A stretch of 64,000 nucleotides of DNA from Actinomycetota bacterium (GTDB lineage: Bacteria > Actinomycetota > Geothermincolia > Geothermincolales > RBG-13-55-18). This document shows, one piece after another, positions 1 through 22,682 of the stretch. The notes under the pieces were generated by a model that was given only the letters and a program-made list of their open reading frames with translations, was not told the DNA's origin and did not search any database. Location: the NCBI GenBank assembly GCA_014360685.1, contig JACIXB010000006.1:31078-95077 (forward strand), in the 5' to 3' direction. The first letter of the stretch is position 1, and each line of letters begins with the position of its first letter. The position numbers were made by a program, and so were the translations under genes.

Positions 1-78
1 GACCACCTCCACAGTCGATCGATTTTTCCTCGGTATTCCATCCACTCCTTAACCTGCAGCGCCATTGACGTTCATGGT

Positions 79-780: not shown

Positions 781-830
781 CTCTTTTCACCACCATGATC
801 CGCCACTGCCGGGAAGAACCACCGCGGCGC

Positions 831-1622
831 TCAGAGGTCCTTCCTCTCCAGGAGGAAAGCCCCCAGGGAAAGGAAGACGGCCGCGAAGGCCGCCGCCAAT
901 CCCAGCAGAAGGAGGAGTTCCGGGGCCCCTACGCGGAAGACCCTCTCCCCGTGGGCCACGGTCTCGTTTATGTTCAGCCTCTCCAGGTTGGGAAGCAGGT
1001 AGTAGAAAAGGCCCGCCAGGCCCCGGAGTACCGCCGGGTGACCGGGGTCGGTCATGGTGCGGTAGAGGAAATCGCCCTTCACGTGGCAGACCACGTAGAA
1101 AAGCCCGGTCAGGAGGACGCAAACCACGGGGCTCAGGTGGACGGAGGCCAGCATGGCCACCGCGGCCAATAGCGCTCCCTCCAGAAAGATGGCCAAAAGG
1201 GCCTTGGCCAGGCCCGGGCTGAACACGCCGAACTTGACGCCCACCAAGGCCAGCACCACCCCGTAGGCCACCAGCAGGCTGGCGGCCAGAACGGCCAGGA
1301 TTCCCAGGTATTTCCCCAAGAAATAGCGCTTCCTGCTCACCGGTCTGGAGAGCGCGTTGTAGATGGTCCTCTTTCCCATTTCGCCCGGCAGGATGGTGGA
1401 GGCCAGGATCACCGCCAGTACGAAGGCCATGATGCTCACCAGACCCAAAGCGGCTTCCCGGGCCAGGTCCAACTGCACCCCCACCTCCGCCGAGGGTAGC
1501 ATGGGCACCAGGAGGATGAGGATAGCGGTGAAGGCCAGCACGGCGTAGAAGACCTTGCGGTGCAGGGCGTCCTGTACCACCCCCCAGGCCACGGTGAGCA
1601 GGTCGGAGGCGAACCTTTTCAC
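831..1622 (-). CDS. ABC-2 type transporter permease (NosY/GldF-like)
   Basis: 263-aa polytopic membrane ORF. Its GTG start overlaps the stop of the upstream ATPase gene by 4 nt (GTGA at 1619-1622), which implies translational coupling. Confidence 0.7.
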   Translation of the reverse strand: MKRFASDLLTVAWGVVQDALHRKVFYAVLAFTAILILLVPMLPSAEVGVQLDLAREAALGLVSIMAFVLAVILASTILPGEMGKRTIYNALSRPVSRKRYFLGKYLGILAVLAASLLVAYGVVLALVGVKFGVFSPGLAKALLAIFLEGALLAAVAMLASVHLSPVVCVLLTGLFYVVCHVKGDFLYRTMTDPGHPAVLRGLAGLFYYLLPNLERLNINETVAHGERVFRVGAPELLLLLGLAAAFAAVFLSLGAFLLERKDL

Positions 1623-2548
1623 TTCCCATCACCACCCGACCGGCCTACCCGCTCCAGGAAGAATTCCTCCAGGCTCATGCGCCTGGGCCCCACCCCTTCT
1701 ACCTCCAGCCCGGCGTCCAGCAGGCGCCGGAGGACGGTTCCCAGTGCCTCGCGCGGCACCACCACCCCGGTGCGGTCGTCCGCCCATGCCGCCGGTGGGG
1801 GGAGGTCCGGCTCCCTCCCCGCGGGAGGAGGGGCGGCCAGCCGCACCAGGAACTCGTCCCGCGAGCGCAACAGTTCGTCCAGGGCCCCCGAGGCCACGTT
1901 CCGTCCCTCGGATATGACCGCCACCCGGTCGCAGATCTCCTCTATCTCCGAGAGCTGGTGCGAGCTCAGGAGAACGGTCACCCCCGAGCGTCGCAGGTCG
2001 TTCAGGAGGTCCCTGACTTCTATCTTCCCCAGAGGATCAAGGCCGGTGGAGGGCTCGTCCAGGATCAGTAACTCCGGCTCCGCGAGGAGGGCCTGGGCCA
2101 GGCCCACGCGCTGCAGCATTCCCTTGGAGAACTTTTCCATGGTAAGATCTCCCACCTCCCCCAGGCCCACCAGGTTCAGCAGGTGCGCGGACCTCGCCTT
2201 GATGCTTTCCTCGGACATCCCGGAGAGCCGCCCGTAATACCGGAGGATCTTCCGAGGCGTGAGATAGAGCTCGAAATAGGGTTGCTCGGGGAGGAAGCCC
2301 ACCCGCGACCTCGCCCGGGGGTCAGAACCTTGGCTCCCGAAAAGGGATATCCTTCCCCTGTCCGGCCTTACCAGCCCCATGACGGCCTTGAGGGTGGTGG
2401 TCTTTCCCGCCCCGTTGGGCCCCAAAAGCCCCACCACGCCGCCGCGGGGAACCTCCAGCTCCAGCCCCCTCAGGGCCACCCGGGGGGGCCTACCCCACCG
2501 CGAAGGGTAGCTCTTGTGCAGATCCTCTACGCGGAGGACCGTGTCCAT
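1619..2548 (-). CDS. ABC transporter ATP-binding protein
   Basis: Walker A GPNGAGKTT, signature FSKGMLQRV, Walker B LLILDEPSTGLD. The ATG lies only 7 nt after the pilT stop codon. Confidence 0.9.
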   Translation of the reverse strand: MDTVLRVEDLHKSYPSRWGRPPRVALRGLELEVPRGGVVGLLGPNGAGKTTTLKAVMGLVRPDRGRISLFGSQGSDPRARSRVGFLPEQPYFELYLTPRKILRYYGRLSGMSEESIKARSAHLLNLVGLGEVGDLTMEKFSKGMLQRVGLAQALLAEPELLILDEPSTGLDPLGKIEVRDLLNDLRRSGVTVLLSSHQLSEIEEICDRVAVISEGRNVASGALDELLRSRDEFLVRLAAPPPAGREPDLPPPAAWADDRTGVVVPREALGTVLRRLLDAGLEVEGVGPRRMSLEEFFLERVGRSGGDGK

Positions 2549-2555
2549 GGCCGGC

Positions 2556-3620
2556 TTATCCTATGAGCCTCTCCATCTCGTCGCGGTTGTTGCACCTGGA
2601 CATGGCCACCTCGTAGGAGATGATCCCCCTCTTGTACAGGGCGGCGATGGACTGGTCCATGGTCTGCATCTTGTATTGTCCGCCGGCCTGCATGGCGGAA
2701 TAGATCTGGTGCGCCTTGGCCTCCCGGATGAGGTTGCGGATGGCCGAAGTGGCCACCATGACCTCCACGGCGGGTACCCTGGACTGGCCGTCCTTGGTGG
2801 GCAGCAGCTGCTGGGTGACGATGGCCTGGATGGTGGAGGCCAGCTGCATGCGCACCTGCTGTTGCTGGTAGGTGGGGAAGACGTCGATGATGCGGTCGAT
2901 GGTCTGGGGCGCGTCCTGGGTGTGCAGGGTGGCGAAGACCAGGTGGCCGGTCTCCGCGGCGGTGAGGGCCGTGGAGATGGTCTCCAGGTCCCTCATCTCT
3001 CCCACCAGGATGACGTCCGGGTCCTGGCGCAGCACGTACTTGAGGGCGTTGGAGAAGGAATGGGTGTCGCCCCCCACCTCCCTCTGGTTGACGATGCACT
3101 TCTTGTGCACGTGGAGGAACTCTATGGGATCCTCCACGGTGATGATATGCAGGTTGCGGTTCTCGTTGATGACGTTGATCATGGCCGCCAGGGTGGTGGA
3201 CTTCCCCTGCCCCGTGGGCCCGGTAACCAGGACGAAACCGCGGGGCAGCATGCAGAAATCGTAGAGCACCGGCGGGAGGTTCAACTCCTCGATGGTCTTG
3301 ATGCGGTAAGGGATGATGCGGAAGGCGGCCCCGATGCTGTTCCTCTGGAAATAGGCGTTGACCCGGAAACGGGCGCTTCCCGGCACGGAGTAGGAGAGGT
3401 CGAACTCCAGGTTGCTCTCCAGCTGCTCACGCTGCCGGGCGGTGAGGATGCTGTACACCATGTCCCGGGTGTCGTTGGAGGTCAGCTTGGGATATTCTTC
3501 CAGGCGGACCAGGACCCCGTTGATGCGCATAACCGGCGGCGCTCCCACCGTGATGTGCAGGTCGGAAGCGCCCCTTACAAGTACCTCCTCCAGCAGCTCG
3601 TTGATGTCCAGCTTGGCCAC
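2556..3620 (-). CDS. pilT: Type IV pilus retraction ATPase PilT
   Basis: 354 aa. N-terminal ASDLHITVGAPP, Walker A GPTGQGKST, Walker B ILVGEMRD, His box GHLVFATLHT. Size is typical of PilT. Confidence 0.9.
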   Translation of the reverse strand: MAKLDINELLEEVLVRGASDLHITVGAPPVMRINGVLVRLEEYPKLTSNDTRDMVYSILTARQREQLESNLEFDLSYSVPGSARFRVNAYFQRNSIGAAFRIIPYRIKTIEELNLPPVLYDFCMLPRGFVLVTGPTGQGKSTTLAAMINVINENRNLHIITVEDPIEFLHVHKKCIVNQREVGGDTHSFSNALKYVLRQDPDVILVGEMRDLETISTALTAAETGHLVFATLHTQDAPQTIDRIIDVFPTYQQQQVRMQLASTIQAIVTQQLLPTKDGQSRVPAVEVMVATSAIRNLIREAKAHQIYSAMQAGGQYKMQTMDQSIAALYKRGIISYEVAMSRCNNRDEMERLIG

Positions 3621-3659
3621 TATCCTCTCCTCCTCTCGGATGGTTTTTCTCGCCGAATT

Positions 3660-5330
3660 TCACATGATGACCCTCAGCACCTCTTCCAGTGAGGTTATAC
3701 CCTGCCTGACCTTTATGAAACCCTCCTCGCGAAGGGTGCGCATGCCCTCCGACCTGGCCATCTCCGCGATCTCCACGTGGGGGGCGTTCCGTGCCACGAG
3801 GTGCTCGATGTTCTCGGTCACTTCCAGGACCTCGAAGATGCCCACCCGACCCCGGAATCCGGTGTTGTTGCAGGCCGGACAGCCTCGGGGACGGAAGAGG
3901 ACGTGTTCGTCCCCCTCCTCCCAACGGAATCCGATCTTCTCCAGGTACTCCTCATCCGGTTCGTAGGGCTCCTTGCAGCGCACGCAAAGGCGGCGGGCCA
4001 GGCGCTGGGAGCTGACGCAGTCCACCGCGGAGGCGATGAGGAAGGGCTCGATGCCCATCTCCAAGAGGCGGGTCAGGGCGCTGGGAGCGTCATTGGTGTG
4101 CAGGGTGGAAAGAACCAGGTGGCCGGTGAGGGCGGACTCGATGGCGATCTGGGCCGACTCCGGGTCTCGTATCTCCCCGATCATGACGATATCCGGGTCG
4201 CAGCGCAGTATGGACCTCAAGGCCGCGGCGAAGGTCAACCCCGCCTTGTAGTGCACCTGCACCTGGTTGATGAGGGGAAGCCGGTACTCCACCGGGTCCT
4301 CCACGGTGATGATGTTCTTCTTGATGGTGTTGAGAACGTTGAGGGTGGCGTATAGGGTGGTGGTCTTCCCGCTGCCGGTAGGTCCGGTCACCAGGATGGT
4401 TCCGTAAGGCTTGTTGAAGCTCTTGGAATATCTTTCCAAACTATCCTCGCTGAAGCCCAGCTCCTCCAGGCTCATCAGGGAGGCGCTCTTGTCCAGGATG
4501 CGCAGGACTATCTTCTCCCCGTGGATGGTGGGCAGGGAGGCCACGCGGAGATCCACCGGCTTTCCCATGACCTCCACCGAGGTGCGCCCGTCCTGGGGCA
4601 ACCTCTTCTCGGCGATGTTCATGTCTGCCATGACTTTTATCCTGGCCACCACCCCGGGGTGGATCTGCTTGGGGTTGCGCCGTATCTCGTGGAGGACGCC
4701 GTCGATGCGGAAACGGATGCGCACGTCGTTCTCCATAGGTTCGATGTGCACGTCGCTGGCCCGGTCGTTCACCGCCTCGGAGATGAGGAGGTTCACGTAT
4801 TTCACGATGGGGGCGTCCTCGGCGTCCGCCGCTTCCCCCGCCTCCTCGGCCGCCCTTTCCGCGAACTCCTCCGCCCCCAGGTCCAGGTCGGCCTCCGTGC
4901 GGCAGTACCGGTTGATGGCCGCGATTATGTCCTCCTTGGTGGCCACCACCGGTTCCACGTCCATCCCGGTCATGATGCGCACGTCGTCCAGGGCGAAGAC
5001 GTTGGTGGGGTCGGCCATGGCCACCAGGAGCTTGTCCCCCTCGAAACCGATGGGGATGAGGGTGTAACGGCGCGCCACCTCCGCGTCCACCAGGGAGCAG
5101 GCGGAGATGTCCACGTCGTAATTGGCCAGGTCCACGTAGCGCAGCCCGATCTGCCGTGCCAGGATGGAGGTCAGGGCGCCCTCGCTCACCATCTTCAAGT
5201 CCACCAGGACCCTTCCCAGCGGTTCGCCGGTCTCCCGCTGCCTCTCCAGGGCCTGCTGCAGCTGTTCTTCCGTTATCACCCGGTTTTTGAGCAGCAGCTG
5301 GCCCAGTCTTTCCTTCTTGGGCTTCTCCAT
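3660..5330 (-). CDS. pilB: Type IV pilus assembly / type II secretion ATPase (PilB/GspE family)
   Basis: 556 aa. GspE-type N-terminal domain, Walker A GPTGSGKTT, IMIGEIRD, GHLVLSTLHTN, C-terminal tetracysteine CVRC...CPAC. Confidence 0.9.
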   Translation of the reverse strand: MEKPKKERLGQLLLKNRVITEEQLQQALERQRETGEPLGRVLVDLKMVSEGALTSILARQIGLRYVDLANYDVDISACSLVDAEVARRYTLIPIGFEGDKLLVAMADPTNVFALDDVRIMTGMDVEPVVATKEDIIAAINRYCRTEADLDLGAEEFAERAAEEAGEAADAEDAPIVKYVNLLISEAVNDRASDVHIEPMENDVRIRFRIDGVLHEIRRNPKQIHPGVVARIKVMADMNIAEKRLPQDGRTSVEVMGKPVDLRVASLPTIHGEKIVLRILDKSASLMSLEELGFSEDSLERYSKSFNKPYGTILVTGPTGSGKTTTLYATLNVLNTIKKNIITVEDPVEYRLPLINQVQVHYKAGLTFAAALRSILRCDPDIVMIGEIRDPESAQIAIESALTGHLVLSTLHTNDAPSALTRLLEMGIEPFLIASAVDCVSSQRLARRLCVRCKEPYEPDEEYLEKIGFRWEEGDEHVLFRPRGCPACNNTGFRGRVGIFEVLEVTENIEHLVARNAPHVEIAEMARSEGMRTLREEGFIKVRQGITSLEEVLRVIM

Positions 5331-6203
5331 TTACCTTTTCGCCTCCATGTCGCCCCGTTCCACGGCTTTGCGGTAAGCTTCTCGCATGACCTCCAGCGGT
5401 GCGGGCTTCTCCGTCCATAGGGCGAAGGAAGCCGCCGCCTGGTGGATGAGCATCCCGCCTCCGTCCGCCACCCGGGCCCCTCTCTGGGCTGCGAAACGCA
5501 GGAGGGCGGATCGACGGCCGTATTTGAGGTCTATGACCCACTTTCCCTCATCCAGGAACGAGTAGTCGATGGGTAGCTCCTCCCCCTCGTCCCCGGAGAG
5601 AGGGGTGCAGTTCACCACCAGTTGGCAATCCCTCAAGACCTTCGCGCCCTCCTTATCCAGCTTCCCAACCCTAATTTCGGTCGAGGCAACCACGCCCTTT
5701 AACCTCTCCCGCAGCTCGAGGGCCCTGGATTCCGTGCGATTGAGCACGTATACGGTTCGGGCGCCTTCCCGCGCCAGGGCCAAGACCACCGACCTCGCCG
5801 CGCCGCCCGCCCCCAGAAGGCCGACGGTCACGCCGGTGACGTCCACCCCCGCTTCCCGCAGTAGGCCCTGGAATCCCGTCGGGTCGGTGTTGTGCCCCAC
5901 CAGGCGGCCGTCCTCCACCACCAGGGTGTTAGCCGCCCCCAGTACCGCAGCCTCGCCGCGCAGTTCGTCGGCCAACCTCGCAGCCTCCACCTTGTGGGGA
6001 ACGGTCACGTTGGCCCCCCGGAAATCCAGGGCCGCCAAACCCCGCAGGGCGGCGTGCACGTGCTCAGGCTTGACCCGAAGCGGCACGTACACCCAGTTCA
6101 TGGCCAAAGCCCTGAAGGCGGCGTTGTGCAGGGCCGGGGAGAGGGTGTAGGAAATGCCGTGGCCGATAATCCCCACCAATTGCGTATTTCCATCTATTAC
6201 CAT
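5331..6203 (-). CDS. aroE: Shikimate dehydrogenase
   Basis: GIIGHGISYTLSPALHNAAF substrate motif and GLLGAGGAARS Rossmann motif. The maximal ORF reaches 6257, but the ATG at 6203 gives the canonical N-terminus (MVIDGNTQLVGIIG). The stop TAA directly abuts the pilB ATG (TAAATG). Confidence 0.85.
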   Translation of the reverse strand: MVIDGNTQLVGIIGHGISYTLSPALHNAAFRALAMNWVYVPLRVKPEHVHAALRGLAALDFRGANVTVPHKVEAARLADELRGEAAVLGAANTLVVEDGRLVGHNTDPTGFQGLLREAGVDVTGVTVGLLGAGGAARSVVLALAREGARTVYVLNRTESRALELRERLKGVVASTEIRVGKLDKEGAKVLRDCQLVVNCTPLSGDEGEELPIDYSFLDEGKWVIDLKYGRRSALLRFAAQRGARVADGGGMLIHQAAASFALWTEKPAPLEVMREAYRKAVERGDMEAKR

Positions 6204-6362
6204 ATACTCACGCCCTTCCCGCCGAACGTGATCCTGGCGCAAGGTTCTCCTATTCAAGGAATGATGATGATCCGTAACGACGTCATCCGCATCCCCGTTC
6301 CATTATTTTAATCGCCTTCTGCGGGAGCGGGAACGGGCAGGGGGGCTTACCGGACCCGCGAC

Positions 6363-6896
6363 CTACTTGTCCAGGGTCTTCAGGATGTCGTAGAGGAGCC
6401 CCAGGAGTACCTTCTTGACGTCTTCCTTTTCCAGGGCGTTGCAGGGAATTACCTGAATATCTCCGTCGATGTTCAATTCCTTGCGGATCCTTTCTATAAC
6501 CGCCTGCTGGTCTCCGTCCGGCATGCGGGTCGCTCCCACCACGAAGGGAGCGTCGGAGAGCGTGGAGAAGAACTCGAGGATGCGCCTGCCCTCGGGGAAG
6601 GTCTCCGGGCGGCTGGCGTCCAGCATGAGGATGTATCCCAACATTCCCTCGGAGAGGATCTGCCACATGAAATCGAACCTCTCCTGGCCGGGTGTCCCGA
6701 AGAGGTAGAGCACGATGTCCTTGGAGATGGTGATGCGGCCGAAGTCCATGGCCACGGTGGTCTCCGCCTTTACCCTCCGCGTGGAATCGGAGATGGCCCG
6801 CTCGGTGGAGACGATGGCGATCTCGCTTATGCTCTTGATGAAGGTGGTCTTGCCCGCGCTGAAGGGCCCGGTGACCACGATCTTGAAGGAACGCAA
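6363..6896 (-). CDS. Small Ras-like GTPase, MglA/CvnD-like (COG2229-type ATP/GTP-binding protein)
   Basis: 177 aa. P-loop GPFSAGKT, switch-I ETTVAMDFG, MglA/CvnD-style G3 FGTPGQERF. The G4 position reads GATRMPD rather than NKxD. TTG start 15 nt after the PATAN gene stop. Confidence 0.8.
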   Translation of the reverse strand: MRSFKIVVTGPFSAGKTTFIKSISEIAIVSTERAISDSTRRVKAETTVAMDFGRITISKDIVLYLFGTPGQERFDFMWQILSEGMLGYILMLDASRPETFPEGRRILEFFSTLSDAPFVVGATRMPDGDQQAVIERIRKELNIDGDIQVIPCNALEKEDVKKVLLGLLYDILKTLDK

Positions 6897-6911: not shown

Positions 6912-9900
6912 TTACAACCTCTTTATGCCGTCTATGATGCGCATGATCAAGCTCTTGGTTACCGCCTTATCCCGTTTCACCTTGGGCACCGGCTTTCCCT
7001 TTTCTATTTCCTCCACCCTGCCCTCTTCTCCTTTCGGCTTTATAGGTATCTTTATCTTCTTGGTCGGCTGCGGCACGGCGGCACCGGTGAGCTCGGCCAG
7101 TTCCCTTTCCAGCGAATAGCGGTCGATATCCAGCTCGCCGTACTCCACCTCCGCCGTTTCTCCGGGAGGAACCGCCGCGGCGGTTTGCGCCTCCCCGGTC
7201 CCGGCCATTGTGTGCATCGGCTTTTTCTCCTCCGGGGTTAACGGCCGGGACGCGGGGTACACGGTCTCCGTGGAAGCGGCGGACGGTCCTGCCCCTGGTG
7301 CCACTTCTTGCTCCTCCACCGGGGAAATCTCCTCCAAGCCGCCTTTCGCCTCTTCAGCGACTGTTAATCCAGCCTCTTCCCCGGTCTCCGGCTTTTCATA
7401 CCCGGTCAGGGGGGCGCTCTCCGGCTCGGTCACCGGGAGGCTTTCCTCCGGGGCCCTCTCCGGCGCCGGGGGCGCCTCTGCGGGCGGGGATTCCACCAGC
7501 TGCCCCATGAGGTCCAGGGTCCGGGGGGCCTCTTCCGCCGGGGGAGCCTCGGACACCGCCTCCGGGGGTGGAGCCTGCTCCGGTTGAGCCAGGGTGCTCT
7601 CCGGCTCGGTCACCGGGAGGCTTTCCTCCGGGGCCCTCTCCGGCGCCGGGGGCGCCTTTTCCTCCTCCAGTTCCTTTACCAGTTCTTCTATTTCGGCGGC
7701 CATCTCCGGAGCCTGAGGTTCGGAGCTCAAGATCTCCTCCTCGAGGGCACTCAGCTCCTTTTCCAGATCCTCGAGTCCCAGGACCTCCTCAGGCTGTCCT
7801 CCCTCCAGGATTTCCTTTTCCAGTTCCTCGATCTCCGAGAGTATGTCCTCGCCCGGAATTCTTTCATTCAGCCCCAGGGCCTGGAGGGAATCATCGACGT
7901 CGAAGAAGGTTCCGGAAGCAAGGCCGGCGTGGGCTTCCTCTTGGATTCCGGTTTCGGAAACCTCCATCACTTCGCTTTCCCCGGCCAAGGCCTCCTCGGG
8001 GGGGAGGTCCTCGAGCATGACCCTCTCCAGGACCTCCGCGGCCGCTTCTCCGGTTTCTTTCTCCTCCTCCCGGGCCTCCGTCCCCAGGTCAGCCCGGGCC
8101 GTCTCGGGCAGGGTTTCCCCGGCCAAGGTCTCCTCGGGGGGGAGGTCCTCGAGCATGACCCTCTCCAGGACCTCCGCGGCCGGATATCCTTCTTTCGCCG
8201 GAGATCTACCCGTTCTCCTCTCCAGCTCCTCCAGTGGTATCCTCACCGTCATGGAGCCCTTCTCATGCGGGCCTCCCAAGCCAGCCAGTATCTCGTCCAG
8301 GCTACGCTCGCTGATCCGGCGCAGGTAGGCCTCATCGGGATGTTCCGAGGGAGAGACGGTTTCCGGTTCCTCGGGAAGCCCGGTCCCGACCTCGATCCCG
8401 GATCCTTCCCCCACCGGCTGCCCACGGAGGCGGAAAGTGCTTCCCAGTATCCTTGATGGATCCAGCGCCGGAGTAACCGGACCCTCCAAGGAGAGAGGTT
8501 TTTCCGCCTTCTCTCCCCAAGTCTTCGAGAGGTGGCTCTTCCATTCCTCGGGTATCTCGTCGGGCTCCAGTTCCGGTATTTCCTCATCCCTGGCCAAGCG
8601 GGCAATCTTGCCGTATTTCTTCTCCAGGTAGGCCCTCTTGGCCGCCCGGGCCTCGGCGCTCTCCCGGGTCATCCGTTCCAACGGCGGAGACGGCGTCTCC
8701 GGCTTGGGAAACGGCTTCTCCTCCGGTTCCTCAAGGGCCATTCCTTCCGGCAAAAGGGCACTTATCTTGCGCTTCAACTCCTCGAGCTCCGCTTCCTTGC
8801 TCTCTATCTGCAGTACTTTCTCCGCTTCCTCGCTCTCCTCCATGGCGGCTTTCTTCATCTCCTGGATGGCCTGTTCCTCTCTCCTTCTCTCCTCCTCCAG
8901 GAGACGCAGGGAACCATTGAGGATATTGACATCCGCGGTACCGGTCCCCGGAAACGCTCCGGTGGGGGTCTCGGCGCTCTCCTCTTCGATGAGTATCTCT
9001 CCCTCCGAATCGCCTCCTATCTCTATCTCGAGGGGCTCCGCCTCTCCCGCCTCCGGGGAAACCTCCGCCGCCTCCACCCCGGCACCCTCTTCCAGGGACA
9101 CGGGGAGTTCGGGAGGAAGCAACGTCTCCGCAACGGCCTCCCCGGGTAGGGACTCCTCCGCTTCGGGGACCGCTCGGGTGATCTCTTGCTCCGCCGCCTC
9201 CACCCCGGCACCCTCTTCCAGGGACACGGGGAGTTCGGGAGGAAGCAACGTCTCCGCAACGGCCTCCCCGGGTAGGGACTCCTCCGCTTCGGGGACCGCC
9301 ACGGCTATGCCCTCGGCGGCCGGGAGGTCCGCAACCGACCCCACCGCCTCCTCTATCTCCGCAACCGGATGACCCTCCCGGGCTTCCTCCGCTTCCATCA
9401 CCTCCGCTGAGGGAAGCTGTTCCCCGGGAGCGGCCTGGAGGGTTTCCGTACTTGCCTCCTCCGCCATGACCTCTTCCCCGGATGCCGGAATCTCCTCCAG
9501 CCTGGGAAGCTCCTCCAGCGGCGGCACCTCCAGGACCCTCTCTTCACCGGCCGCCTCGAGCTCCTGGGCCAGCCTCTCCAGGCGGCTCCCGGCTTCCCTC
9601 TCCTCCCGGTCCGGGGTAACGTTCTCCAGCAGCCCGGAGCTGATCAAACCGTAGAGGATCTTGCACGTATGCAGGGTACTCATGCCGGTCTTTTCCACGA
9701 TCTGGCGAACCGTCTTCTCACCGTCAACGTGGGTCAGAACCATCCACTCCTCAGGGGTCAAGCTTATCTGGGCGGCTTCCCTTCCCTGCATGGAGGTCAT
9801 CTTGAAGACCGTATCGAGGTTGGGTATCTTCTTCTCGATACGGTTCCACTCGTCGAGTCTACGCGAGCCCTCCATGATCAGCTCCTCGGTGCTGATGGAG

Positions 9901-10325
9901 AGCCCTATATCCTCCTCGGGGAAAACCACTCCGGGCTGAAACTCGAACTCGCCGTCCGTCCAACGGAGCATCTCGAAAACGGCGTCCTGGATCTGCTCTT
10001 CTACGAAGACTTCCAGCTGCTCCTTGGTGATGTAGCCCAACCTGATAAGAAGCTGCCCCAGTCGCTGTCCCCTGGCGGTGGTCTTCTGCAACTCCAAGGC
10101 CTCCTCCAACTGGGCCCGGGTGATGATCCCCGCCCCCAAAAGTTTCATGCCCAGGGATTGCCTCTTCCAGTTAGTGGTGGCGAAGAAGACCTCGCCGTTA
10201 CGGAAACATATATAACCCCTGGCTTGCCCCCGGATGAGGTTGAGGGTGCCGTTCTTCTTTCCGAAATTTAGCAACTGGAACAGGTCGGGAAGGCTGAAAT
10301 CCTTTAAACTTCCCTTGAGAGCCAT
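6912..10325 (-). CDS. PATAN (DUF4388) domain protein with about 850-aa acidic Glu/Pro/Ala-rich repeat region
   Basis: 1137 aa. N-terminus [28 protein letters not shown]...GEVFFA is the PATAN/DUF4388 signature. A helical segment follows ([42 protein letters not shown]), then low-complexity acidic sequence with internal duplications and a short basic C-terminus. GGAGGAG SD before the ATG. Confidence 0.75.
7416..7657. repeat. Intragenic direct repeat: two identical 62-bp copies (7416-7477, 7596-7657), period 180 bp
   Basis: Read directly from the sequence. Encodes a duplicated [20 protein letters not shown] block. Confidence 0.85.
7976..8182. repeat. Intragenic direct repeat: two 69-bp copies (7976-8044, 8114-8182), one mismatch, period 138 bp
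   Basis: Read directly from the sequence. Encodes a duplicated [17 protein letters not shown](A/T)LAGE block. Confidence 0.85.
9063..9299. repeat. Intragenic direct repeat: two identical 111-bp copies (9063-9173, 9189-9299), period 126 bp
   Basis: Read directly from the sequence. Encodes a duplicated [37 protein letters not shown] block in the PATAN protein. Confidence 0.9.
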
Positions 10326-10621: not shown

Positions 10622-11020
10622 CTACTCGTATTCGATGCGGAACTCCGATTTAATTATCTCGGCGATCTTTTTCGCCGCTCCCTTCACGTCGTAGAGCACA
10701 AGCCCAAGCTTGCTCCCCTTACGCACCAGGGCGGTGAGAACCGCGTCCTCCCCGGCGGCCATGAGGAACACGTATCCTTCCTTGCCCTCCACGAAAACCT
10801 GGGCCAGCTCTCCACGCCCCAGCTCCTCGGACGTCCTCTCACCCAGGCTGAGCAGGGCCGCGGACATGGCACCCAAACGGTCCTCTTCCAGGGTATTGGG
10901 AAGCACCGAGGCCATGACCAGGCCGTCCATGCTCACTACTGCAGCCGCGTCCACCTCCGCGGACTTGGAAACCAGCTCGCTCAGCGCGCTGCGCAGCCTT
11001 GCTTCCCTCGATTCCGCCAA
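10622..11020 (-). CDS. Roadblock/LC7 (MglB/CvnB-like) domain protein, paralog 1
   Basis: Core AAAVVSMDGLVMAS...LGAMSAALLSLGERTSEELGRGELAQVFVEGKEGYVFLMAAGEDAVLTALV. The maximal ORF starts at 11071 (GTG). The TTG at 11020, preceded by CGTTTCGGGAGGT, aligns with the start context of paralog 2. Confidence 0.75.
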   Translation of the reverse strand: MAESREARLRSALSELVSKSAEVDAAAVVSMDGLVMASVLPNTLEEDRLGAMSAALLSLGERTSEELGRGELAQVFVEGKEGYVFLMAAGEDAVLTALVRKGSKLGLVLYDVKGAAKKIAEIIKSEFRIEYE

Positions 11021-11077
11021 GTAACCGACCTCCCGAAACGACCACGATTCAAGCCATGGACCAGAAGGCACCCCGCT

Positions 11078-11452
11078 CTACTGGAAGAGGGCGGACAGTT
11101 CTTCCGCCGTCCGCTTGGCCTCCATGAAAACCACTCCCAGTTTGGCCTCCGGCCTAACCAGCAGCGACAGCAGCGCGTCGGGCCCGCAATGCACCAGCAG
11201 CAGGTAACCCTGATCGCCTTTTATATAGGCCTGCTCCAGGGATCCGCGCTTCAGGTCCCGGGCGGCCCTTTCTCCCATGCTCAACACGGAGGCGGATAGA
11301 GCGCCGATCATCTCCTCGTCAGCCTCGTCGGACATGTCCGAGGCCAGAGCCATGGCATCGGAGCTGATGAGCACCGCCGCCTCTATTTCCGGCAGGTTGG
11401 ACCTCAACTGCCGGAGCACGGAATTCATCTTCTCGATGCGGTCCGATACCAA
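11078..11452 (-). CDS. Roadblock/LC7 (MglB/CvnB-like) domain protein, paralog 2
   Basis: 124 aa. EIEAAVLISSDAMALAS...IGALSASVLSMGERAARDLKRGSLEQAYIKGDQGYLLLVHCGPDALLSLLV. TTG start 5 nt after a GGGAGG SD. Confidence 0.8.
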   Translation of the reverse strand: MVSDRIEKMNSVLRQLRSNLPEIEAAVLISSDAMALASDMSDEADEEMIGALSASVLSMGERAARDLKRGSLEQAYIKGDQGYLLLVHCGPDALLSLLVRPEAKLGVVFMEAKRTAEELSALFQ

Positions 11453-11509: not shown

Positions 11510-11863
11510 TCACAGAGAGCTCTCGATGACGGGAAGGAACTTCCGGATGTCGTACCTTGCCTTCCCCAGGTTGGCCCCCGCGGGCAGGATGGAAACCAGG
11601 ATGGCGTCGGCCCCCACCGCACTCATGAGGATGGCGCCCTTCTCGAATTCGAACATGGCCTGGGACATGGGACCCTGAGCGAGCTCCAGCCCTATGACCT
11701 CCGCAGCCCCCAAGGAGCTGGGGGCTATGGCACCAACGGCCTCCAGGTGAGAGGCGTCTTCGCCCGCGGTCTCGATGATGAAACCATCCCTTCCCACCAC
11801 CAGCGCGGCTCGAACCGTACCGGTGGCCACCAGTTCCTCAAGAACCTTCCTCAGATCGGGCAA
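11510..11863 (-). CDS. Roadblock/LC7 (MglB/CvnB-like) domain protein, paralog 3
   Basis: 117 aa. VRAALVVGRDGFIIETAG...GAILMSAVGADAILVSIL. TTG start 7 nt after a GGAGGTG SD. Confidence 0.8.
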   Translation of the reverse strand: MPDLRKVLEELVATGTVRAALVVGRDGFIIETAGEDASHLEAVGAIAPSSLGAAEVIGLELAQGPMSQAMFEFEKGAILMSAVGADAILVSILPAGANLGKARYDIRKFLPVIESSL

Positions 11864-11994
11864 AACGCACCACCTCCTGCCCCGGGAAAAACCGGTCTAG
11901 GCCCTTATGGGCTAACGGTCCGCTTTCTCCGCCACGGTTCCGCCGGATTCCACCGAACCCGGATGCCTCCCGCGTCCGTTAATACTGTTGCTCA

Positions 11995-12023
11995 ATTATA
12001 ATAAAGTCAACTTCTTACTCCAA
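11995..12023 (-). promoter_or_regulatory. Candidate sigma-70-type promoter for the Roadblock-PATAN-GTPase array (TTGGAG-17 nt-TATAAT)
   Basis: This is the only A/T-rich island in the 400-bp gap between the ferredoxin gene and Roadblock paralog 3. On the minus strand, -10 TATAAT is at 12000-11995 and -35 TTGGAG at 12023-12018. Confidence 0.25.
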
Positions 12024-12268
12024 TGGTTAAGTATCGACATCTTCGCCCTTTTCTTAACCGGGTCAGGGCTTCAATTCCCTATTTTAGTCCCCTTCGCGCG
12101 GGCATGATAACCTCGTCCTCCAAAACCTCGACGGTTTACATGCCCGCCATCCGCCGGGTTCCAGGCCCCGGCCGACCACCATGGCCCCGTGGATGTTGAC
12201 GCTTTGGCCCGATCCCCTCCGTCAAGCCTCCCCGTGAGCGGTTACGGACCTTCCGCGTCTGAACCGCC

Positions 12269-12538
12269 TCAATAGATGGCCGCCTCCTTGTTCCCGGCCC
12301 TCGGGTCAACGTACCCCTCCCACCGCCTCAGGCCGTCGACGGTCAAGGCAAGGGAGCGGCATACCTCCACGCAGGTAAGGCAGGCCAGGCAACTTCCCGG
12401 ATTGGCCACCCGTGGCACCCGCTCCCCCCTCTCGAAGACCGGAAACTGGGTTCCCCCGGTCTGAGGGCAGAGTTCCACGCACTCCCGGCATCCGATGCAC
12501 CGGGCCTCGTCCAAGAGGATACTGCGTTCCTCGGCCAT
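12269..12538 (-). CDS. 2x[4Fe-4S] ferredoxin-domain protein
   Basis: Cluster motifs CIGCRECVELCP and CLACLTCVEVC. The ATG at 12538 follows a strong GGAGGTGG SD and lies 20 nt after the large-subunit stop. The maximal ORF reaches 12574. Confidence 0.75.
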   Translation of the reverse strand: MAEERSILLDEARCIGCRECVELCPQTGGTQFPVFERGERVPRVANPGSCLACLTCVEVCRSLALTVDGLRRWEGYVDPRAGNKEAAIY

Positions 12539-12558: not shown

Positions 12559-13869
12559 TCAATGAACCCCGCATGGAACACAGGGGGAGTAGGCCCTCAC
12601 CACCATGTGCAGGACATCGCTCACCCTTTCCTGGCCCTCCTTCTCGACGGAGGCGAAGGCCTCAGCCAGGGATTTCTCCAGGTTCCGCAGGTTGAACTGC
12701 AGTGGGGAGACGATGGAAAGCTCTTCCACCAGCCCCTTTTCCCCCAGCTCCACCCCGTAGACCAACCCCCCCTCCGGGGCCTCGATATACACCCCGGCCT
12801 TCCCCGCCGCCGGGTTGAGGGTCTCGCCGAGCGTTCCCCGGAAAGGCTCCCTCAGGAGCTCGAGCATCCTCTCCCAGGCATGGAGCATCTCCAACATCCT
12901 CAACGCGTGAGCCACCATGGGATAGCGAACCGGGAATCCCCAAGTCTCCTTCAGCTCCGATAATTCCTCGTCCGCCCTCGGGGTACCGTACCTCCCGTTC
13001 ACGTTGACGCGCGCCAGGGGCCCCACCGTCAAGCCTTCCGTCCCCTCCAACCCGGCATAGACGACGTGCCCGCTCGTCGAGGGCTCCTCGCGCAGCCTCT
13101 CCCCCAGGTCCTCCACGGGACGGGGTTCCACCACTTCCGTTCCGGGAGTGAACAGTGCCGGGCTGCCCCCGGTTATCCCCATTCCACCCGGGTCGTGCCC
13201 GGCCAAAAAGGAACCTCCTATGCTCCCCGCCCTGCGGACCGTCTCCTCGCTCCTCCTCAGCAGCAGCTTGACCAGCCTGGCCGTCTCCAGCAGCAGCGAT
13301 TCTCCCGACCTCAATCTGTCCGCCAACCTCTCCCGGGACTCCACCGGGAGATCGCGCACCACTCCCCCGGGACGGAAATTGACCCCGTGCACCGTCGGCC
13401 CCCCCGTCTCGCGGAGCACCGCGGTGCCCAGGGACTTCAGGCTCAATAACCTTCTCACCACTTCCTCGTCGACCCGGTATATGCTCACCAGGTTGCGCAG
13501 CCCGGGGTCCGACGAGGGGAATAGGAGGTCGGGCAGGCCGTGCACGAAAAGCGATACCGCATGGCGCTCGAAAAACTGGGCCCAAAGCGCCAGTTCGCGC
13601 ATGGACCTGGCGGCGGGAGGGACCTCCACCCCCAGCGCCTTTTCCACCACCAGGCAGGCGGCCGCCTGGTGGAACAGCGAATCCGGCCCGCAGATACGCG
13701 AGACCAGGGGCGGCAGGTTATCCACGTGCACCCCGCGGGCCATCATCTCGAAGCCCCGGTAACCAAAGGCGGAGAAACGTACCCGCGGGGATATCCCCTC
13801 CTCCGCCTCCACCCGGAGGGAAGCGTGGCCGAATATCCTAGTCAGGGGTCCTATAACCAGATGGGCCAT
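12559..13869 (-). CDS. [NiFe]-hydrogenase large-subunit-like protein (FrhA/MvhA-size) with altered active-site motifs
   Basis: 436 aa. N-terminus GPLTRIFGH (canonical TRIEGH). L1 motif RICGPDSLFH (canonical RxCGxCxxxH). The C-terminal L2 motif SPCVPCGVH is immediately followed by the stop codon. Sits adjacent to a small-subunit gene. Confidence 0.75.
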   Translation of the reverse strand: MAHLVIGPLTRIFGHASLRVEAEEGISPRVRFSAFGYRGFEMMARGVHVDNLPPLVSRICGPDSLFHQAAACLVVEKALGVEVPPAARSMRELALWAQFFERHAVSLFVHGLPDLLFPSSDPGLRNLVSIYRVDEEVVRRLLSLKSLGTAVLRETGGPTVHGVNFRPGGVVRDLPVESRERLADRLRSGESLLLETARLVKLLLRRSEETVRRAGSIGGSFLAGHDPGGMGITGGSPALFTPGTEVVEPRPVEDLGERLREEPSTSGHVVYAGLEGTEGLTVGPLARVNVNGRYGTPRADEELSELKETWGFPVRYPMVAHALRMLEMLHAWERMLELLREPFRGTLGETLNPAAGKAGVYIEAPEGGLVYGVELGEKGLVEELSIVSPLQFNLRNLEKSLAEAFASVEKEGQERVSDVLHMVVRAYSPCVPCGVH

Positions 13870-13922: not shown

Positions 13923-14816
13923 CTATTCTCCCAAGCGATGCAGGTAGGGCGAAGTCCCCCCGGAGCGGCGCTTCCGCAGCAGCGGTTCCGCGAGACAGAA
14001 GAAGTAATAGGTATGGGCGGGATCGGGCACCTCGGCCCTGATCTCCTCCTCCTTTTTTCCCGTCGCCCTGGCCAACCTCCGCACCGTCTCCCCCTCCACG
14101 TCCGCTCCCTTGCGTTCCAGCACCCGGCCCGAGGGACCCCGGCAACCCCTGCAGGGAACGCCCATCCCGGAGGGGCAGAGGGCCCCGCAACCGTCGCGGG
14201 TCAGGGGACCGAGGCAGAAAAAACCGGAGTCGAGGAGGCATTTTCCCGGCTCGCCCGAACCCTCCGTAAGTCGCCGCGGTCCCGGCTGGGGGAGGGGCGG
14301 GGAGGTCACCTTGCATTCCGCGCATACCGTGGCGCCCTCCCTGGATAACCGGTCCCCCGAAACGGCCGAGCGGAGGAATCCCTCCAGGAGCGCGGGGACG
14401 GGAGGGCACCCTGGTAGATAAGCGTCCACCCGGATGAAGGAATCCAGGGGCAGGAGCCTCCTTACTCCCTGCGGACCACCCTCGAAGGCGGTATCCCCGA
14501 AGCGCGACCTCAAAAGGCGGGATTCGGGATAGAGGTCCGCCAGCCCTTGAACCCCGCCGAAACAGGAGCAGGTCCCCAGGGCCACCACGCGATCCGCCTT
14601 CTCCCTGATCTCCCGGGCCTTGAGGAAATGTTCCGTGTTCCTCACCGTGCCCTCCACCAAGGCCAGGTCGGCGTGGTGCAGTTCCTTCTTATCCATGAGG
14701 AAGGGTGCGTACACCACCCGGTTCCCGCCGATCAGCTCGTAAAGGTACTCCTCCAGGCTGAGGAATACCATTTGGCATCCCAGGCACGAGCTCAAGGACA
14801 GGAGGGCGATATCCAT
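13923..14816 (-). CDS. [NiFe]-hydrogenase small-subunit-like protein (FrhG/MvhG, NuoB-fold)
   Basis: 297 aa. Proximal-cluster cysteines present (SSCLGC, GTCSCFGG, LPGCPP). The C-terminal half is Cys-rich (CAEC, CLGPLTRDGCGALC, CRGC), consistent with medial and distal clusters. Confidence 0.75.
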   Translation of the reverse strand: MDIALLSLSSCLGCQMVFLSLEEYLYELIGGNRVVYAPFLMDKKELHHADLALVEGTVRNTEHFLKAREIREKADRVVALGTCSCFGGVQGLADLYPESRLLRSRFGDTAFEGGPQGVRRLLPLDSFIRVDAYLPGCPPVPALLEGFLRSAVSGDRLSREGATVCAECKVTSPPLPQPGPRRLTEGSGEPGKCLLDSGFFCLGPLTRDGCGALCPSGMGVPCRGCRGPSGRVLERKGADVEGETVRRLARATGKKEEEIRAEVPDPAHTYYFFCLAEPLLRKRRSGGTSPYLHRLGE

Positions 14817-14819
14817 GAT

Positions 14820-15314
14820 TCACTCCAGCGTAGTCCTGAGGACCACCAGGCAGGCCCCGGGGCCCGCGTGCCGGGTCTGCAGGTCCACCCGGCGACCGAA
14901 GATCTCCTGGAGCATCCCGGCGGCATAGCCGTGTACCGCCTGGCAGGCCACGCCACCGAGGGGTATACCAGAGGCCAGGCAGGAACGACGCAAGGGACAT
15001 TCCTCGAACAGCAGCCTGACCATCATTTCCTCAGCCTCGAAGACCCAGTAGTCCTCGTCTTCCTGGTTCTTCCAGAGAGAGACCTTCCACACCTCATCCC
15101 GGCCTGGAAAGACCCACCCGAGGGCGCGTTCCAGATCCTCGGTGCGGTCGTAAGCGGCGGATTCCCTCTTCCCCAGGTCCTTGCCGGCAAAATACAAGAG
15201 CTGGGCGGTGGACCTACCCGTCACCTCCCCTCCGGCACGGTCGAGGATGGCGAGGATCTCACTCAGCGCCCTCCACCTGCCGGTCAGTATCTCCAGTTCT
15301 TCTTCCATCCTCAC
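14820..15314 (-). CDS. V4R (4-vinyl reductase / Bet3-like) domain protein
   Basis: 164 aa. The C-terminal half, EECPLRRSCLASGIPLGGVACQAVHGYAAGMLQEIFGRRVDL...GPGACLVVL, fits the V4R Cys/Gly pattern. The stop lies 3 nt before the small-subunit start. Start is GTG at 15314 or ATG at 15308. Confidence 0.5.
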   Translation of the reverse strand: MRMEEELEILTGRWRALSEILAILDRAGGEVTGRSTAQLLYFAGKDLGKRESAAYDRTEDLERALGWVFPGRDEVWKVSLWKNQEDEDYWVFEAEEMMVRLLFEECPLRRSCLASGIPLGGVACQAVHGYAAGMLQEIFGRRVDLQTRHAGPGACLVVLRTTLE

Positions 15315-20916: not shown

Positions 20917-22425
20917 TCAACCCTCCCCGGGACATCGGTTGCCCCCCTCTCTCCCCCGATCTTCCCTCCCTAGAACTCCCGCCCCCTTCCTCTTCATCCA
21001 TTGCTCCACCAGGCATGCCTCCTCGCCGCGGGCTCCCGGACGGTAGAACTCCCTGCCTTCCATTCCCTCGGGGAGATAGGACTGCTCCACGTAGCCCCCG
21101 GGGTAACGGTGCGGGTAAAGGTAGCCCTTGCCGTGCCCCAGCGAGGGGGCCGCCGCATAATGGGTATCCCTCAGGTGGGGAGGCACCGGTGGGGTCGCCC
21201 CCTCGGCCACTTCCCGGTCGGCGGCGGTTATGGCTCGCAGCGCCGAGTTGCTTTTGGGTGCCAGGGAAAGGTAGAGGGCGGCATGGGCCAGGTTTAGGCG
21301 GCATTCCGGCAGGCCCACGAACTCCACCGCCTGCGCGGCGGCTGTGGCCACCTGCAGCGCCCCGCTGTCCGCCAATCCCACGTCCTCGGAGGCGAAGATG
21401 ATCATGCGCCGGGCGATGAAACGCGGGTCCTCGCCGGCCTGGAGCATGCGGGCCAGCCAGTACACGGCGGCGTGGGGATCGGAACCGCGCAGGGATTTGA
21501 TGAACGCGGAGATGGTATCGTAGTGGGCGTCTCCCCACTTGTCGTAGAGCAGTGCCTTGCGCTGCGCCGCCTCCTCCGCGGCTCGCAGGTCCACGTACCT
21601 CCGTCCCTCCCGCTCCCTGGAGAGGAGGGCGGCGGCCTCCAGGGTGTTCAAAGCCACCCTGGCGTCTCCCCCCGAGAGGCGTACGATATGGCTCAGGGCC
21701 TCCTCCTCCACCTCCAGGCCCAGCGATCCCAGCCCCCTCTCCCGGTCCTCCAGGGCTCTTTCCAGGATTTTCCTTATCTCCTCCTCGCCCAAGGGACGGA
21801 GGCGGAAGATCTTGCTCCTGGAGACCAGGGCCGAGTTGACCTCGAAATAGGGGTTCTCCGTGGTGGCACCGATGAGGACTATCGTGCCGTCCTCCACGGC
21901 GGGGAGCAACGCATCCTGCTGCGCCTTGTTGAAGCGGTGGATCTCGTCGATGAAGATGATGGTACGCTGACCGCGCATGGCCCTGCGGTCCTCGGCTTCC
22001 CGTATGAGCCTGCGCACCTCGGACACCCCGCTCTCCACCGCGGATATCTGTTGAAAATGGGCCCGGGTCACGCGGGCGATGACGGAAGCCAGGGTGGTCT
22101 TGCCCGAGCCGGGCGGTCCCCAGAAGATGGCCGTCTGCAGTTGGTCCTCCTGGATGGCGCGGCGGAGGTAGGTACCTTCCCCCACCACTTCATCCTGGCC
22201 CACGAACTCCTCCAGGGTGCGCGGACGCATACGCAGCGCCAGCGGCGCCTCGGTCTCTCTCATTTTCTCCCTGGCCGCCTCGAAGAGGTCCAATCCGCCA
22301 CCTCCGCCCATCCGCGAACTCAAGCCCATCATATTCCCCCGCAGGGACAGCGCGCCGCGGCGTCCTACCCGCAAATAGGAATCGGACCCCACCTTGCCGT
22401 CCGCGCCGCTATCTTGAACCTGCAC
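20917..22425 (-). CDS. rarA: Replication-associated recombination protein A (AAA+ ATPase)
   Basis: [17 protein letters not shown], Walker [10 protein letters not shown], MgsA C-terminal domain. The true start is probably internal (ATG at 22332/22329 or 22311). Confidence 0.9.
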
Positions 22426-22682
22426 CCACGCAGGTGGGCACCTACCGCGGGCCTCCGTAGTCCCCCACCCGGGTTGGGGGCATTACGTCCGCCGGCGGAA
22501 AGCGGTTCCCTTTATCGAAGTGTTGGCTCAACGATAATCCACGGCGCACAACGCACAAGGTCGAGCCCGATAACCGCCTTTTAAATTCTATCATATCGAC
22601 CGGGGTCCGGCGTAGAGGACCGTTCACCCCCTTGGTTGACGGTCCCCTGGAAAAGGGGTGGAAAGTACGCGTGGGTACAGCC

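Follow-up and report, generated by a model that had tools for sequence, protein, structure and literature searches.

The gene studied here encodes a hydrogenase-like large subunit and lies at positions 12559 to 13869 of a 64,000-nucleotide stretch of DNA from an Actinomycetota bacterium of the Geothermincolia (assembly GCA_014360685.1, contig JACIXB010000006.1, positions 31,078 to 95,077), which is called the window throughout. Its product is a homolog of the large subunit of group-3 (Mvh/Vhu-like) [NiFe]-hydrogenases, and it is encoded in one operon with a hydrogenase-like small subunit, a ferredoxin and a V4R-like protein. Our work strongly favours the idea that the family formed by this protein and its relatives is a constrained, derived offshoot of the hydrogenases rather than a conventional enzyme that cycles hydrogen (H2). 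For the module as a whole the best reading, to which we assign a probability of roughly 0.45, is that of a non-canonical, hydrogenase-derived iron-sulfur (Fe-S) sensor of redox state or of a ligand.

The group assignment is based on matches to NCBIfam and to the Protein Data Bank (PDB) and on a profile search of cluster representatives. The large subunit matches the Pfam family NiFeSe_Hases (PF00374) with an E value of 6e-12 (45.6 bits at a cut-off of 25.8) and the NCBIfam families VhuA (1e-43), ShyA (2e-39) and FrhA (3e-25), in all three cases with scores below the equivalog cut-offs (149 vs 800, 136 vs 700 and 89 vs 392 bits, respectively). Solved structures are matched at 1e-47 (7t2r_D), 7e-44 (VhuA, 9sfi) and 3e-43 (MvhA, 5odc_F), and in the three printed alignments Asp63 invariably faces the second Cys of the L1 motif. 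The AlphaFold2 model of the protein (predicted local distance difference test, pLDDT, of 84; predicted template modelling score, pTM, of 0.89) keeps the hydrogenase fold, and Foldseek aligns it with a template modelling (TM) score of about 0.9 to 7t2r_D (HydL), MvhA 5odc_F and HoxH 5xfa.

In [NiFe]-hydrogenases, the four Cys residues of the L1 and L2 motifs ligate the Ni-Fe centre, with the second L1 Cys bridging Ni and Fe; the Glu residue of the RIEGH motif is the proton-transfer gate in the Desulfovibrio enzymes, and standard large subunits end in a C-terminal extension, which is cleaved after Ni insertion. The original prediction had reported deviations from all of these features except L2, and a second reading of the DNA gives the same residues: the N-terminal motif (residues 10-15) is TRIFGH, L1 (residues 58-67) is RICGPDSLFH with a GAT codon for Asp63, and the L2 region (residues 428-436) reads SPCVPCGVH, i. 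e. PCVPCGVH is intact with both Cys and the His of DPCxxCxxH and only the Asp changed to Ser. A TGA codon directly follows His436, and the protein has no C-terminal extension. The missing extension, which had been listed as a distinguishing mark, is not diagnostic on its own, since of the best 150 representatives about 10 that have canonical motifs also end at the L2 His. The statement that no hyp or protease genes accompany the gene agrees with our data: a motif scan of the 64-kb window and family scans of most other open reading frames (ORFs), i. e. all but about 15 at roughly 28.8-40.7 kb, revealed neither hyp genes nor a maturation protease nor a canonical large subunit.

The remodelling of the active site extends well beyond the residues noted at first. 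We compared 97 canonical group-3 representatives with 73 members of the family and regarded as conserved those positions that are identical in at least 80% of the canonical set. There are 46 such positions; 34 of them are common to the family, among them Cys60, His67, Cys430, Cys433 and His436, and 12 differ (E13 variable, E36G, P53 variable, C63D, S102R, K270R, R366E, H371Y, Y373L, T390L, D428A and S432P). Several of the replaced residues are present in the entire canonical set, i. e. the Glu at position 13, the L1 Cys at position 63, the Arg at position 366 and the Asp of the DPC motif at position 428 (97/97 each), and the Thr at position 390 is found in 95/97. From what is known for the Desulfovibrio and Escherichia coli enzymes, we take position 13 to be the proton-gate Glu, position 63 the bridging Cys, position 366 the canopy Arg of the PRG motif, position 390 the Thr/Ser that forms a hydrogen bond to a cyanide (CN) ligand, and position 428 the partner of the canopy Arg. 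To the changes noted before, the comparison adds Glu366 (for Arg), Tyr371 (for His), Leu390 (for Thr) and Ala or Ser at position 428 (for Asp), all of them invariant or nearly invariant. The comparison indicates that the scaffold is conserved while the first and second coordination spheres (E13, C63, R366, H371, T390 and D428) have been specifically rebuilt, and a canonical H2-cycling site in this protein is very unlikely. The earlier alternative of either a site of three Cys and one Asp or a non-catalytic derivative stands insofar as the substitutions are fixed; the picture of a single odd ligand gives way to that of a coordination sphere that is remodelled as a whole.

The substitutions are shared by all close relatives. 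A search of 5.8 billion proteins yielded 73 relatives of the large subunit with 48-94% identity, and all those that are named come from metagenome-assembled genomes (MAGs) of Actinomycetota, including Candidatus Solincola tengchongensis. Asp63 is present in 74/74 sequences (the query and the 73 relatives), and Cys60, Cys430, Cys433 and His67 are likewise invariant. Glu366 and Leu390 are found in 73/73 family sequences compared, Tyr371 in 72/74, and position 428 is Ala in 71 relatives and Ser in the query; the C-terminal extension is absent from all close relatives. Of the two residues that had been proposed for an alignment of orthologs, it is thus Asp63 that is conserved, whereas Phe13 is incidental: in the 73 relatives, position 13 is occupied by Asn (27), Tyr (15), Ser (12), Phe (7) and others, and never by Glu. 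Accordingly, neither Cys63 nor Glu13, which would have spoken for an assembly error or a lesion in one strain, occurs in the 74 close sequences, although deeper orthologs at the same locus do have Cys63. Over 20 loci, Asp63 is encoded by GAT (16) or GAC (4) and Glu366 by GAG (14) or GAA (6), and since both synonymous codons are used at either position, the two amino acids have been held through synonymous turnover. In a comparison with the 94%-identical relative at locus L032, the large-subunit gene has a ratio of nonsynonymous to synonymous substitutions (dN/dS) of 0.17, similar to that of the small-subunit gene (0.18); for alaS the ratio is 0.09. Taken together, these comparisons indicate that we are dealing with real and fixed substitutions that purifying selection maintains. 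An error of sequencing or assembly, or a pseudogene decaying in a single strain, would have nothing in its favour beyond the prior that odd motifs can be errors, and we give this explanation practically no weight: the same residues recur in the 73 relatives, which are independent and come from many different samples and assemblers, and the synonymous variation at the key codons, the intact reading frame and the dN/dS of 0.17 contradict it as well.

When 1.84 billion cluster representatives were searched with a profile, 4535 relatives were retrieved, and among the best 150, which were examined, canonical motifs dominate. In a neighbour-joining tree, the query and eight of the representatives (P0062, P0074, P0127, P0129, P0134, P0143, P0139 and P0174) form one clade apart from the other 136, and every member of this clade that can be placed on a contig occupies the same orthologous locus. 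The lineages of the clade differ in their ligands. The Solincola-type clade has Cys and Asp in L1, both Cys in L2, and Glu366; the group of P0129 has the same ligands and Glu366 and has lost the terminal His. In the Geothermincola-type clade all four Cys are present, with Glu or Gly at position 366, and four Cys are also found in the group of P0143 and P0134, with Arg or Gln at position 366 and an AlaS that is only 53% identical. Finally, the P0139 lineage (AlaS 47% identical) has kept the L1 Cys residues and lost both L2 Cys residues, and nothing points to a frameshift there. None of these lineages has the L0 Glu, the DPC Asp or the C-terminal extension, and the ancestor was therefore already short of key catalytic features before the lineages diverged further. 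Since deeper orthologs at the same locus have Cys63 and one lacks the L2 Cys residues, the Cys3Asp site is a lineage-specific state and does not define the family. In this phylogenetic framework, the module appears as a monophyletic, fast-evolving offshoot of the group-3 (Mvh/Vhu-type) [NiFe]-hydrogenases, and the Cys3Asp site as one state within a stepwise series of degeneration. So far, the module has been seen only in anaerobic, deep-branching Actinomycetota, i. e. Candidatus Solincola, Candidatus Geothermincola and their relatives. No independent second occurrence of the Asp variant was found among the relatives: P0129, P0143 and P0139 all map to the same orthologous locus.

Two further observations concern sequences outside the clade. 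The top-scoring canonical relatives (the P0130 cluster) are large subunits of Asgard archaea (Promethearchaeota and Hodarchaeota), a statement that refers to the search ranking and not to phylogeny. Moreover, eight group-3-like large subunits outside the clade (P0149, P0159, P0179, P0183, P0220, P0251, P0254 and P0267) have missing or altered Cys ligands, and degenerate pseudo-hydrogenases may be more widespread, beyond the module's own family.

The operon has the order V4R-like protein, small subunit, large subunit and ferredoxin, with distances of 3 base pairs (bp) and 53 bp and then either an overlap or a gap of 20 bp, depending on the start chosen for the ferredoxin. The longest ORF of the ferredoxin starts at 12574 and overlaps the stop codon of the large-subunit gene by 16 nucleotides (nt); the ATG at 12538, 20 nt past this stop codon, is favoured by the alignment of the orthologs and by the preceding GGAGGTG. 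The small subunit matches Pfam Oxidored_q6 (3e-25), NCBIfam VhuG (7e-50; 170 bits, below the cut-off of 450) and MvhG (5odc_E, 2e-48), and all 12 Cys residues that ligate the proximal, medial and distal [4Fe-4S] clusters align with those of MvhG. These residues are kept in 22/22 close orthologs and in all sequences of the deeper clades for which the N-terminus was covered, among them the lineage that lacks the L2 Cys; two gene calls that are truncated (L024 and L025) do not show C11 and C14. Similarly, the eight Cys residues of the ferredoxin are invariant in 21 close orthologs and at the deeper-clade loci L024, L025, L026 and L028. The predicted Fe-S electron-transfer chain is thus better conserved than the catalytic site. 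The fourth protein matches Pfam V4R only below the threshold (E of 0.05 for the query and 0.006 for one ortholog), and its orthologs are labelled 'predicted hydrocarbon binding protein' by JGI. Its AlphaFold2 model (pLDDT 75) retrieves the sensor domains of MopR/PoxR, TRAPPC3/Bet3 and the V4R protein MJ1460 in Foldseek, with a probability of 1.0 and a TM score of only about 0.5. Residues C106, C124 and C155 of this protein are invariant, and C112 is nearly so.

Downstream of the operon, three Roadblock/LC7 proteins, a PATAN protein and a small GTPase are encoded, followed by aroE and genes for type IV pili (Table 1). The order alaS-ruvX-mltG, the four genes of the operon, the five genes of the Roadblock block, and aroE-pilB-pilT is identical in every locus that is long enough to show it, down to genomes with an AlaS that is 47-53% identical. 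All constituents of an MglA/MglB-PATAN module, i. e. three Robl_LC7 proteins and a Ras-like GTPase as well as a DUF4388/PatA_N protein, are thus present in one neighbourhood. The GTPase belongs to a cluster labelled 'ATP/GTP-binding protein [Candidatus Solincola tengchongensis]'. The PATAN protein has an MshEN-type motif for the binding of cyclic di-GMP (c-di-GMP) at residues 58-111 (NCBIfam NF053729, 50 bits vs a cut-off of 38); its long tail is acidic and rich in Glu and Pro with several near-exact internal repeats, and the lengths of the orthologs range from 1124 to 1470 amino acids (aa). The third Roadblock protein probably starts near 11020, as its orthologs have 132 aa. Across the orthologous loci, Roadblock protein 1 is 82-96% and Roadblock protein 3 is 90-95% identical, and for these two proteins and the GTPase dN is 0 relative to L032 at a dS of about 0.16. 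The Roadblock proteins and the GTPase are thus under exceptionally strong constraint.

Table 1. Features discussed in this work, with positions in the window
Feature	Position	Strand	Length	Basis or remark
Hydrogenase-like large subunit	12559..13869	-	436 aa	ATG start; DNA read and homology
Large subunit, codon F13	13833-13831	-		TTC
Large subunit, codon C60	13692-13690	-
Large subunit, codon D63	13683-13681	-		GAT
Large subunit, codon E366	12774-12772	-
Large subunit, codon L390	12702-12700	-
Large subunit, codon S428	12588-12586	-
Large subunit, codon C430	12582-12580	-
Large subunit, codon C433	12573-12571	-
Large subunit, codon H436	12564-12562	-
Large subunit, stop codon	12561-12559	-		TGA
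MvhG/VhuG-like small subunit	13923..14816	-	297 aa	Oxidored_q6, VhuG and MvhG matches
2x[4Fe-4S] ferredoxin	12269..12538	-	~89 aa	Pfam Fer4 families
V4R-like protein (putative V4R/Bet3 fold)	14820..15314	-	164 aa	Sub-threshold Pfam V4R and Foldseek
Conserved AT-rich element (probable promoter/operator)	11975..12061	-	~85 nt	In the 405-bp gap from the ferredoxin to the first Roadblock gene
Roadblock/LC7 (MglB-like) protein 1	11510..11863	-		Robl_LC7 3e-12; weak NCBIfam MglB match
Roadblock/LC7 protein 2	11078..11452	-		Robl_LC7 3e-15
Roadblock/LC7 protein 3	10622..11071	-		Robl_LC7 2e-18
PATAN (DUF4388/PatA_N) protein	6912..10325	-	1137 aa	Pfam DUF4388 1e-36
MglA/CvnD-like small GTPase	6363..6896	-	177 aa	ATP_bind_1 5e-16, Ras 2e-7
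aroE	5331-6257			Between GTPase and PilB
PilB	3660-5330	-		Type IV pilus ATPase; Pfam MshEN and T2SSE 2e-142
PilT	2556-3620	-		Type IV pilus ATPase; NCBIfam pilT_fam 1e-147

The gap between the ferredoxin gene and the first Roadblock gene varies from 154 to 581 bp across the loci and contains a conserved AT-rich element with 70-88% nucleotide identity across loci with large subunits that are 52-58% identical; the alignment of this element (A3) has 38 invariant columns, including a TATAAT box. An RNA element in this gap was considered and set aside as Rfam gave no credible match for it, and the element is probably the promoter/operator of the Roadblock-PATAN-GTPase unit. Given the conserved TATAAT element, the Roadblock block probably has a promoter of its own; no terminator was predicted between the operon and this block. 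Past the end of the window, pilC, pilM and pilO are followed by aroC, aroK, aroB and aroQ. The pilus cluster (pilB, pilT, a pair of ABC transporter genes, a gene for a TPR protein, pilC, pilM and pilO, as judged from positions 1-6257 of the window and locus L033) splits the shikimate genes into aroE and aroC-aroK-aroB-aroQ. Compared with alaS-ruvX-mltG-aroE-aroC-aroK-aroB, the usual actinobacterial order, the block of nine genes seems to have been inserted after mltG and before aroE, beside the pilus cluster. Elsewhere in the window, a gene for 6S RNA (22382-22569, minus strand; a full-length match to Rfam RF00013 with 63.9 bits) overlaps with the longest ORF for a RarA-like ATPase at the 5' end of the latter, and the gene for this ATPase therefore probably starts further downstream.

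How could the module work? A canonical NiFe(CN)2CO site cannot be what the orthologs rely on as a group, yet the Fe-S relay is kept throughout. We propose that electrons from the ferredoxin pool would enter via the ferredoxin of the operon and pass down the [4Fe-4S] chain of the small subunit to end at the remodelled pocket of Cys60, Asp63, His67, Glu366, Cys430, Cys433 and His436. This pocket may hold a different metal ion, probably one that is independent of the Hyp proteins, or may serve only as a conformational read-out, and the V4R-like partner would probably bring or sense a small hydrophobic ligand. The module would then act as a cytoplasmic redox or ligand sensor with its output directed to the switch made up of the three Roadblock proteins, the c-di-GMP-binding PATAN protein and the MglA-like GTPase, and the latter could pass the signal on to type IV pilus motility. 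Indeed, the association of MglA/MglB with PATAN has been described as a signalling module (PMC4316618), and a partnership of V4R/TRAPPC3 proteins with GTPase and Roadblock systems has been discussed as well (PMC10933270). The signalling role suggested in the original prediction is thus plausible from the conserved V4R-like, Roadblock, PATAN, GTPase and pilus neighbours, although by adjacency only. It is rather doubtful, however, that the module feeds the adjacent GTPase/pilus module, a link for which the conserved position is the argument.

Several observations weigh against the interpretation as a sensor or against its link to the GTPase. In the Solincola-type clade, three Cys, one Asp, one Glu and two His residues are invariant; this speaks for a genuine metal or catalytic site and against a mere scaffold, and suggests a site that is real and different, possibly with a metal. 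The flanking housekeeping genes are just as syntenic as the module, and the conserved order may reflect vertical inheritance alone; moreover, all loci are orthologous, and no independent second pairing of the operon with the GTPase block was found among them. Judged from the length of the gap and its promoter-like element, the operon and the Roadblock block are probably separate transcription units. Their rates of evolution are uncoupled as well: with identities of 82-96%, the Roadblock proteins, the GTPase and the N-terminus of PATAN evolve at a far lower rate than the large subunit (41-75%), the identity of AlaS over the same lineages being 56-90%. Finally, the host organisms have been reported to possess hydrogenases and the Wood-Ljungdahl pathway (PMC12917137), and Hyp maturases may therefore be available to them.

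The invariance of the pocket could also mean that the protein is a new oxidoreductase in which the old Ni-Fe pocket reduces another substrate, e. g. a small hydrophobic molecule delivered by the V4R-like protein, with ferredoxin electrons supplied through the Fe-S chain. The Solincola-type clade shows little or no variation at Cys60, Asp63, His67, Glu366, Cys430, Cys433 and His436, the chain of five clusters for the input of electrons is intact, and the operon is translationally coupled to a gene for a protein with a putative ligand-binding V4R/Bet3 fold. There are also precedents, as hydrogenase modules have been repurposed in complex I and in Mbx/Mbs: NuoD/NuoB reduce quinone and Mbs reduces polysulfide at the old hydrogenase site. 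Yet the pocket varies among orthologous lineages (Cys or Asp at position 63; Glu, Gly, Arg or Gln at position 366; one lineage without the L2 Cys residues and another without the terminal His), which is unexpected for one conserved chemistry, and there are no substrate-related genes nearby. We therefore regard a new oxidoreductase as unlikely. A somewhat lower probability is given to a protein that still activates H2, be it a sensor with low turnover or a hydrogenase, which would use an unprecedented Ni-Fe or other bimetallic centre with three Cys and a bridging Asp, and Glu366 as the base, to signal the availability of H2. All but one of the four ligand Cys are kept, as are the His residues of both motifs, with an invariant Asp at the bridging position, and the ligands of the proximal cluster are intact; the established H2 sensors lack the C-terminal extension, too. 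The hosts, moreover, are reported to be anaerobes that metabolise H2 and CO2 with hydrogenases, Hdr and Rnf (PMC12917137). On the other hand, the proton-gate Glu is gone in 74/74 sequences, Glu stands in place of the canopy Arg, Leu in place of the CN-anchoring Thr and Ala in place of the canopy Asp, some orthologs at the same locus are entirely devoid of L2 Cys, neither hyp genes nor a kinase partner are encoded nearby, and the NCBIfam scores are far under the hydrogenase equivalog cut-offs. Less probable still is a more specific proposal for the Solincola-type proteins, i. e. a new metal centre with three Cys ligands and carboxylate bridges (Asp63 and Glu366), formed with neither CN/CO nor Hyp, that would sense H2 or the redox state of ferredoxin and relay it together with the V4R-like partner to the Roadblock/MglA-type GTPase that steers type IV pilus motility. 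If this is true, acetogen-like Actinomycetota would in effect be guided in their twitching by redox state or by hydrogen.

The reading of the module as a hydrogenase-derived redox or ligand sensor has implications for the annotation of these genomes and for our view of the hydrogenase fold. Public annotations label members of the family as 'nickel-dependent hydrogenase large subunit' or 'F420-non-reducing hydrogenase', and such labels inflate the H2 metabolism inferred for MAGs of the Geothermincolia type. To our knowledge, hydrogenase-derived proteins that gave up H2 chemistry are well known only from the membrane-bound group-4 lineage (complex I, Mbx/Mbs and Ehr), and the module would be their soluble, group-3-derived counterpart. 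The graded series from four Cys residues via Cys3Asp with the change of Arg to Glu to the loss of the L2 Cys serves as a natural experiment and indicates the [NiFe]-site residues whose exchange leaves the fold and the Fe-S relay in place. Provided that the module is indeed linked to the Roadblock/PATAN/GTPase block, it would represent the first description of an Fe-S redox input to a small-GTPase switch in prokaryotes. In the literature that we searched, there is no description of the family, nor of any hydrogenase-like Fe-S operon that lies next to a Roadblock/GTPase module or in the place of its sensor gene; searches on hydrogenases of the Geothermincolia, on hydrogenase-like proteins with a Cys-to-Asp exchange, and on V4R with Roadblock proteins and GTPases yielded nothing that describes the module.

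The closest known systems are the group 3c enzymes MvhAG/VhuAG and the bifurcating HydSL (7t2r), which provide the best sequence and structure matches for both subunits and fall into the same length class; moreover, the small subunits MvhG and VhuG bind three [4Fe-4S] clusters with 12 Cys residues, as predicted for the small subunit of the module. However, the module is only about 25% identical to MvhAG/VhuAG, the L0 Glu, the second Cys of L1, the canopy Arg, His371, the Thr, the DPC Asp and the extension are changed or absent, and in place of MvhD or an Hdr partner there are a small ferredoxin and a V4R-like protein. The group 2b H2 sensors (HoxBC/HupUV) are hydrogenase heterodimers that serve in signalling and have large subunits with no cleavable extension, and the module would resemble them in these respects. 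HoxBC/HupUV retain the four Cys residues and the Glu, contain the standard NiFe(CN)2CO centre and signal through a histidine kinase, whereas the module is closest to group 3, has Asp63 in place of a ligand Cys and no kinase in the conserved locus. In NuoD/NuoB, Mbx/Mbs and Ehr, as generally understood, the pair of subunits and the Fe-S relay of the small subunit have been kept, the Cys residues of the large subunit have been replaced in part or completely, and the pocket has been reused; these systems are membrane-bound, related to group 4 and have a single N2-type cluster, in contrast to the soluble, group-3-derived module with its three clusters plus ferredoxin and an operon free of membrane subunits. 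For the neighbouring block, the association of MglA, MglB and PATAN in polarity modules (PMC4316618) is shared by the locus. In the actinobacterial conservons (CvnA-D), a Roadblock protein and a GTPase are paired with a dedicated sensor protein; the locus studied here differs from them in that it has neither a CvnA-type kinase nor CvnC and encodes three Roadblock paralogs.

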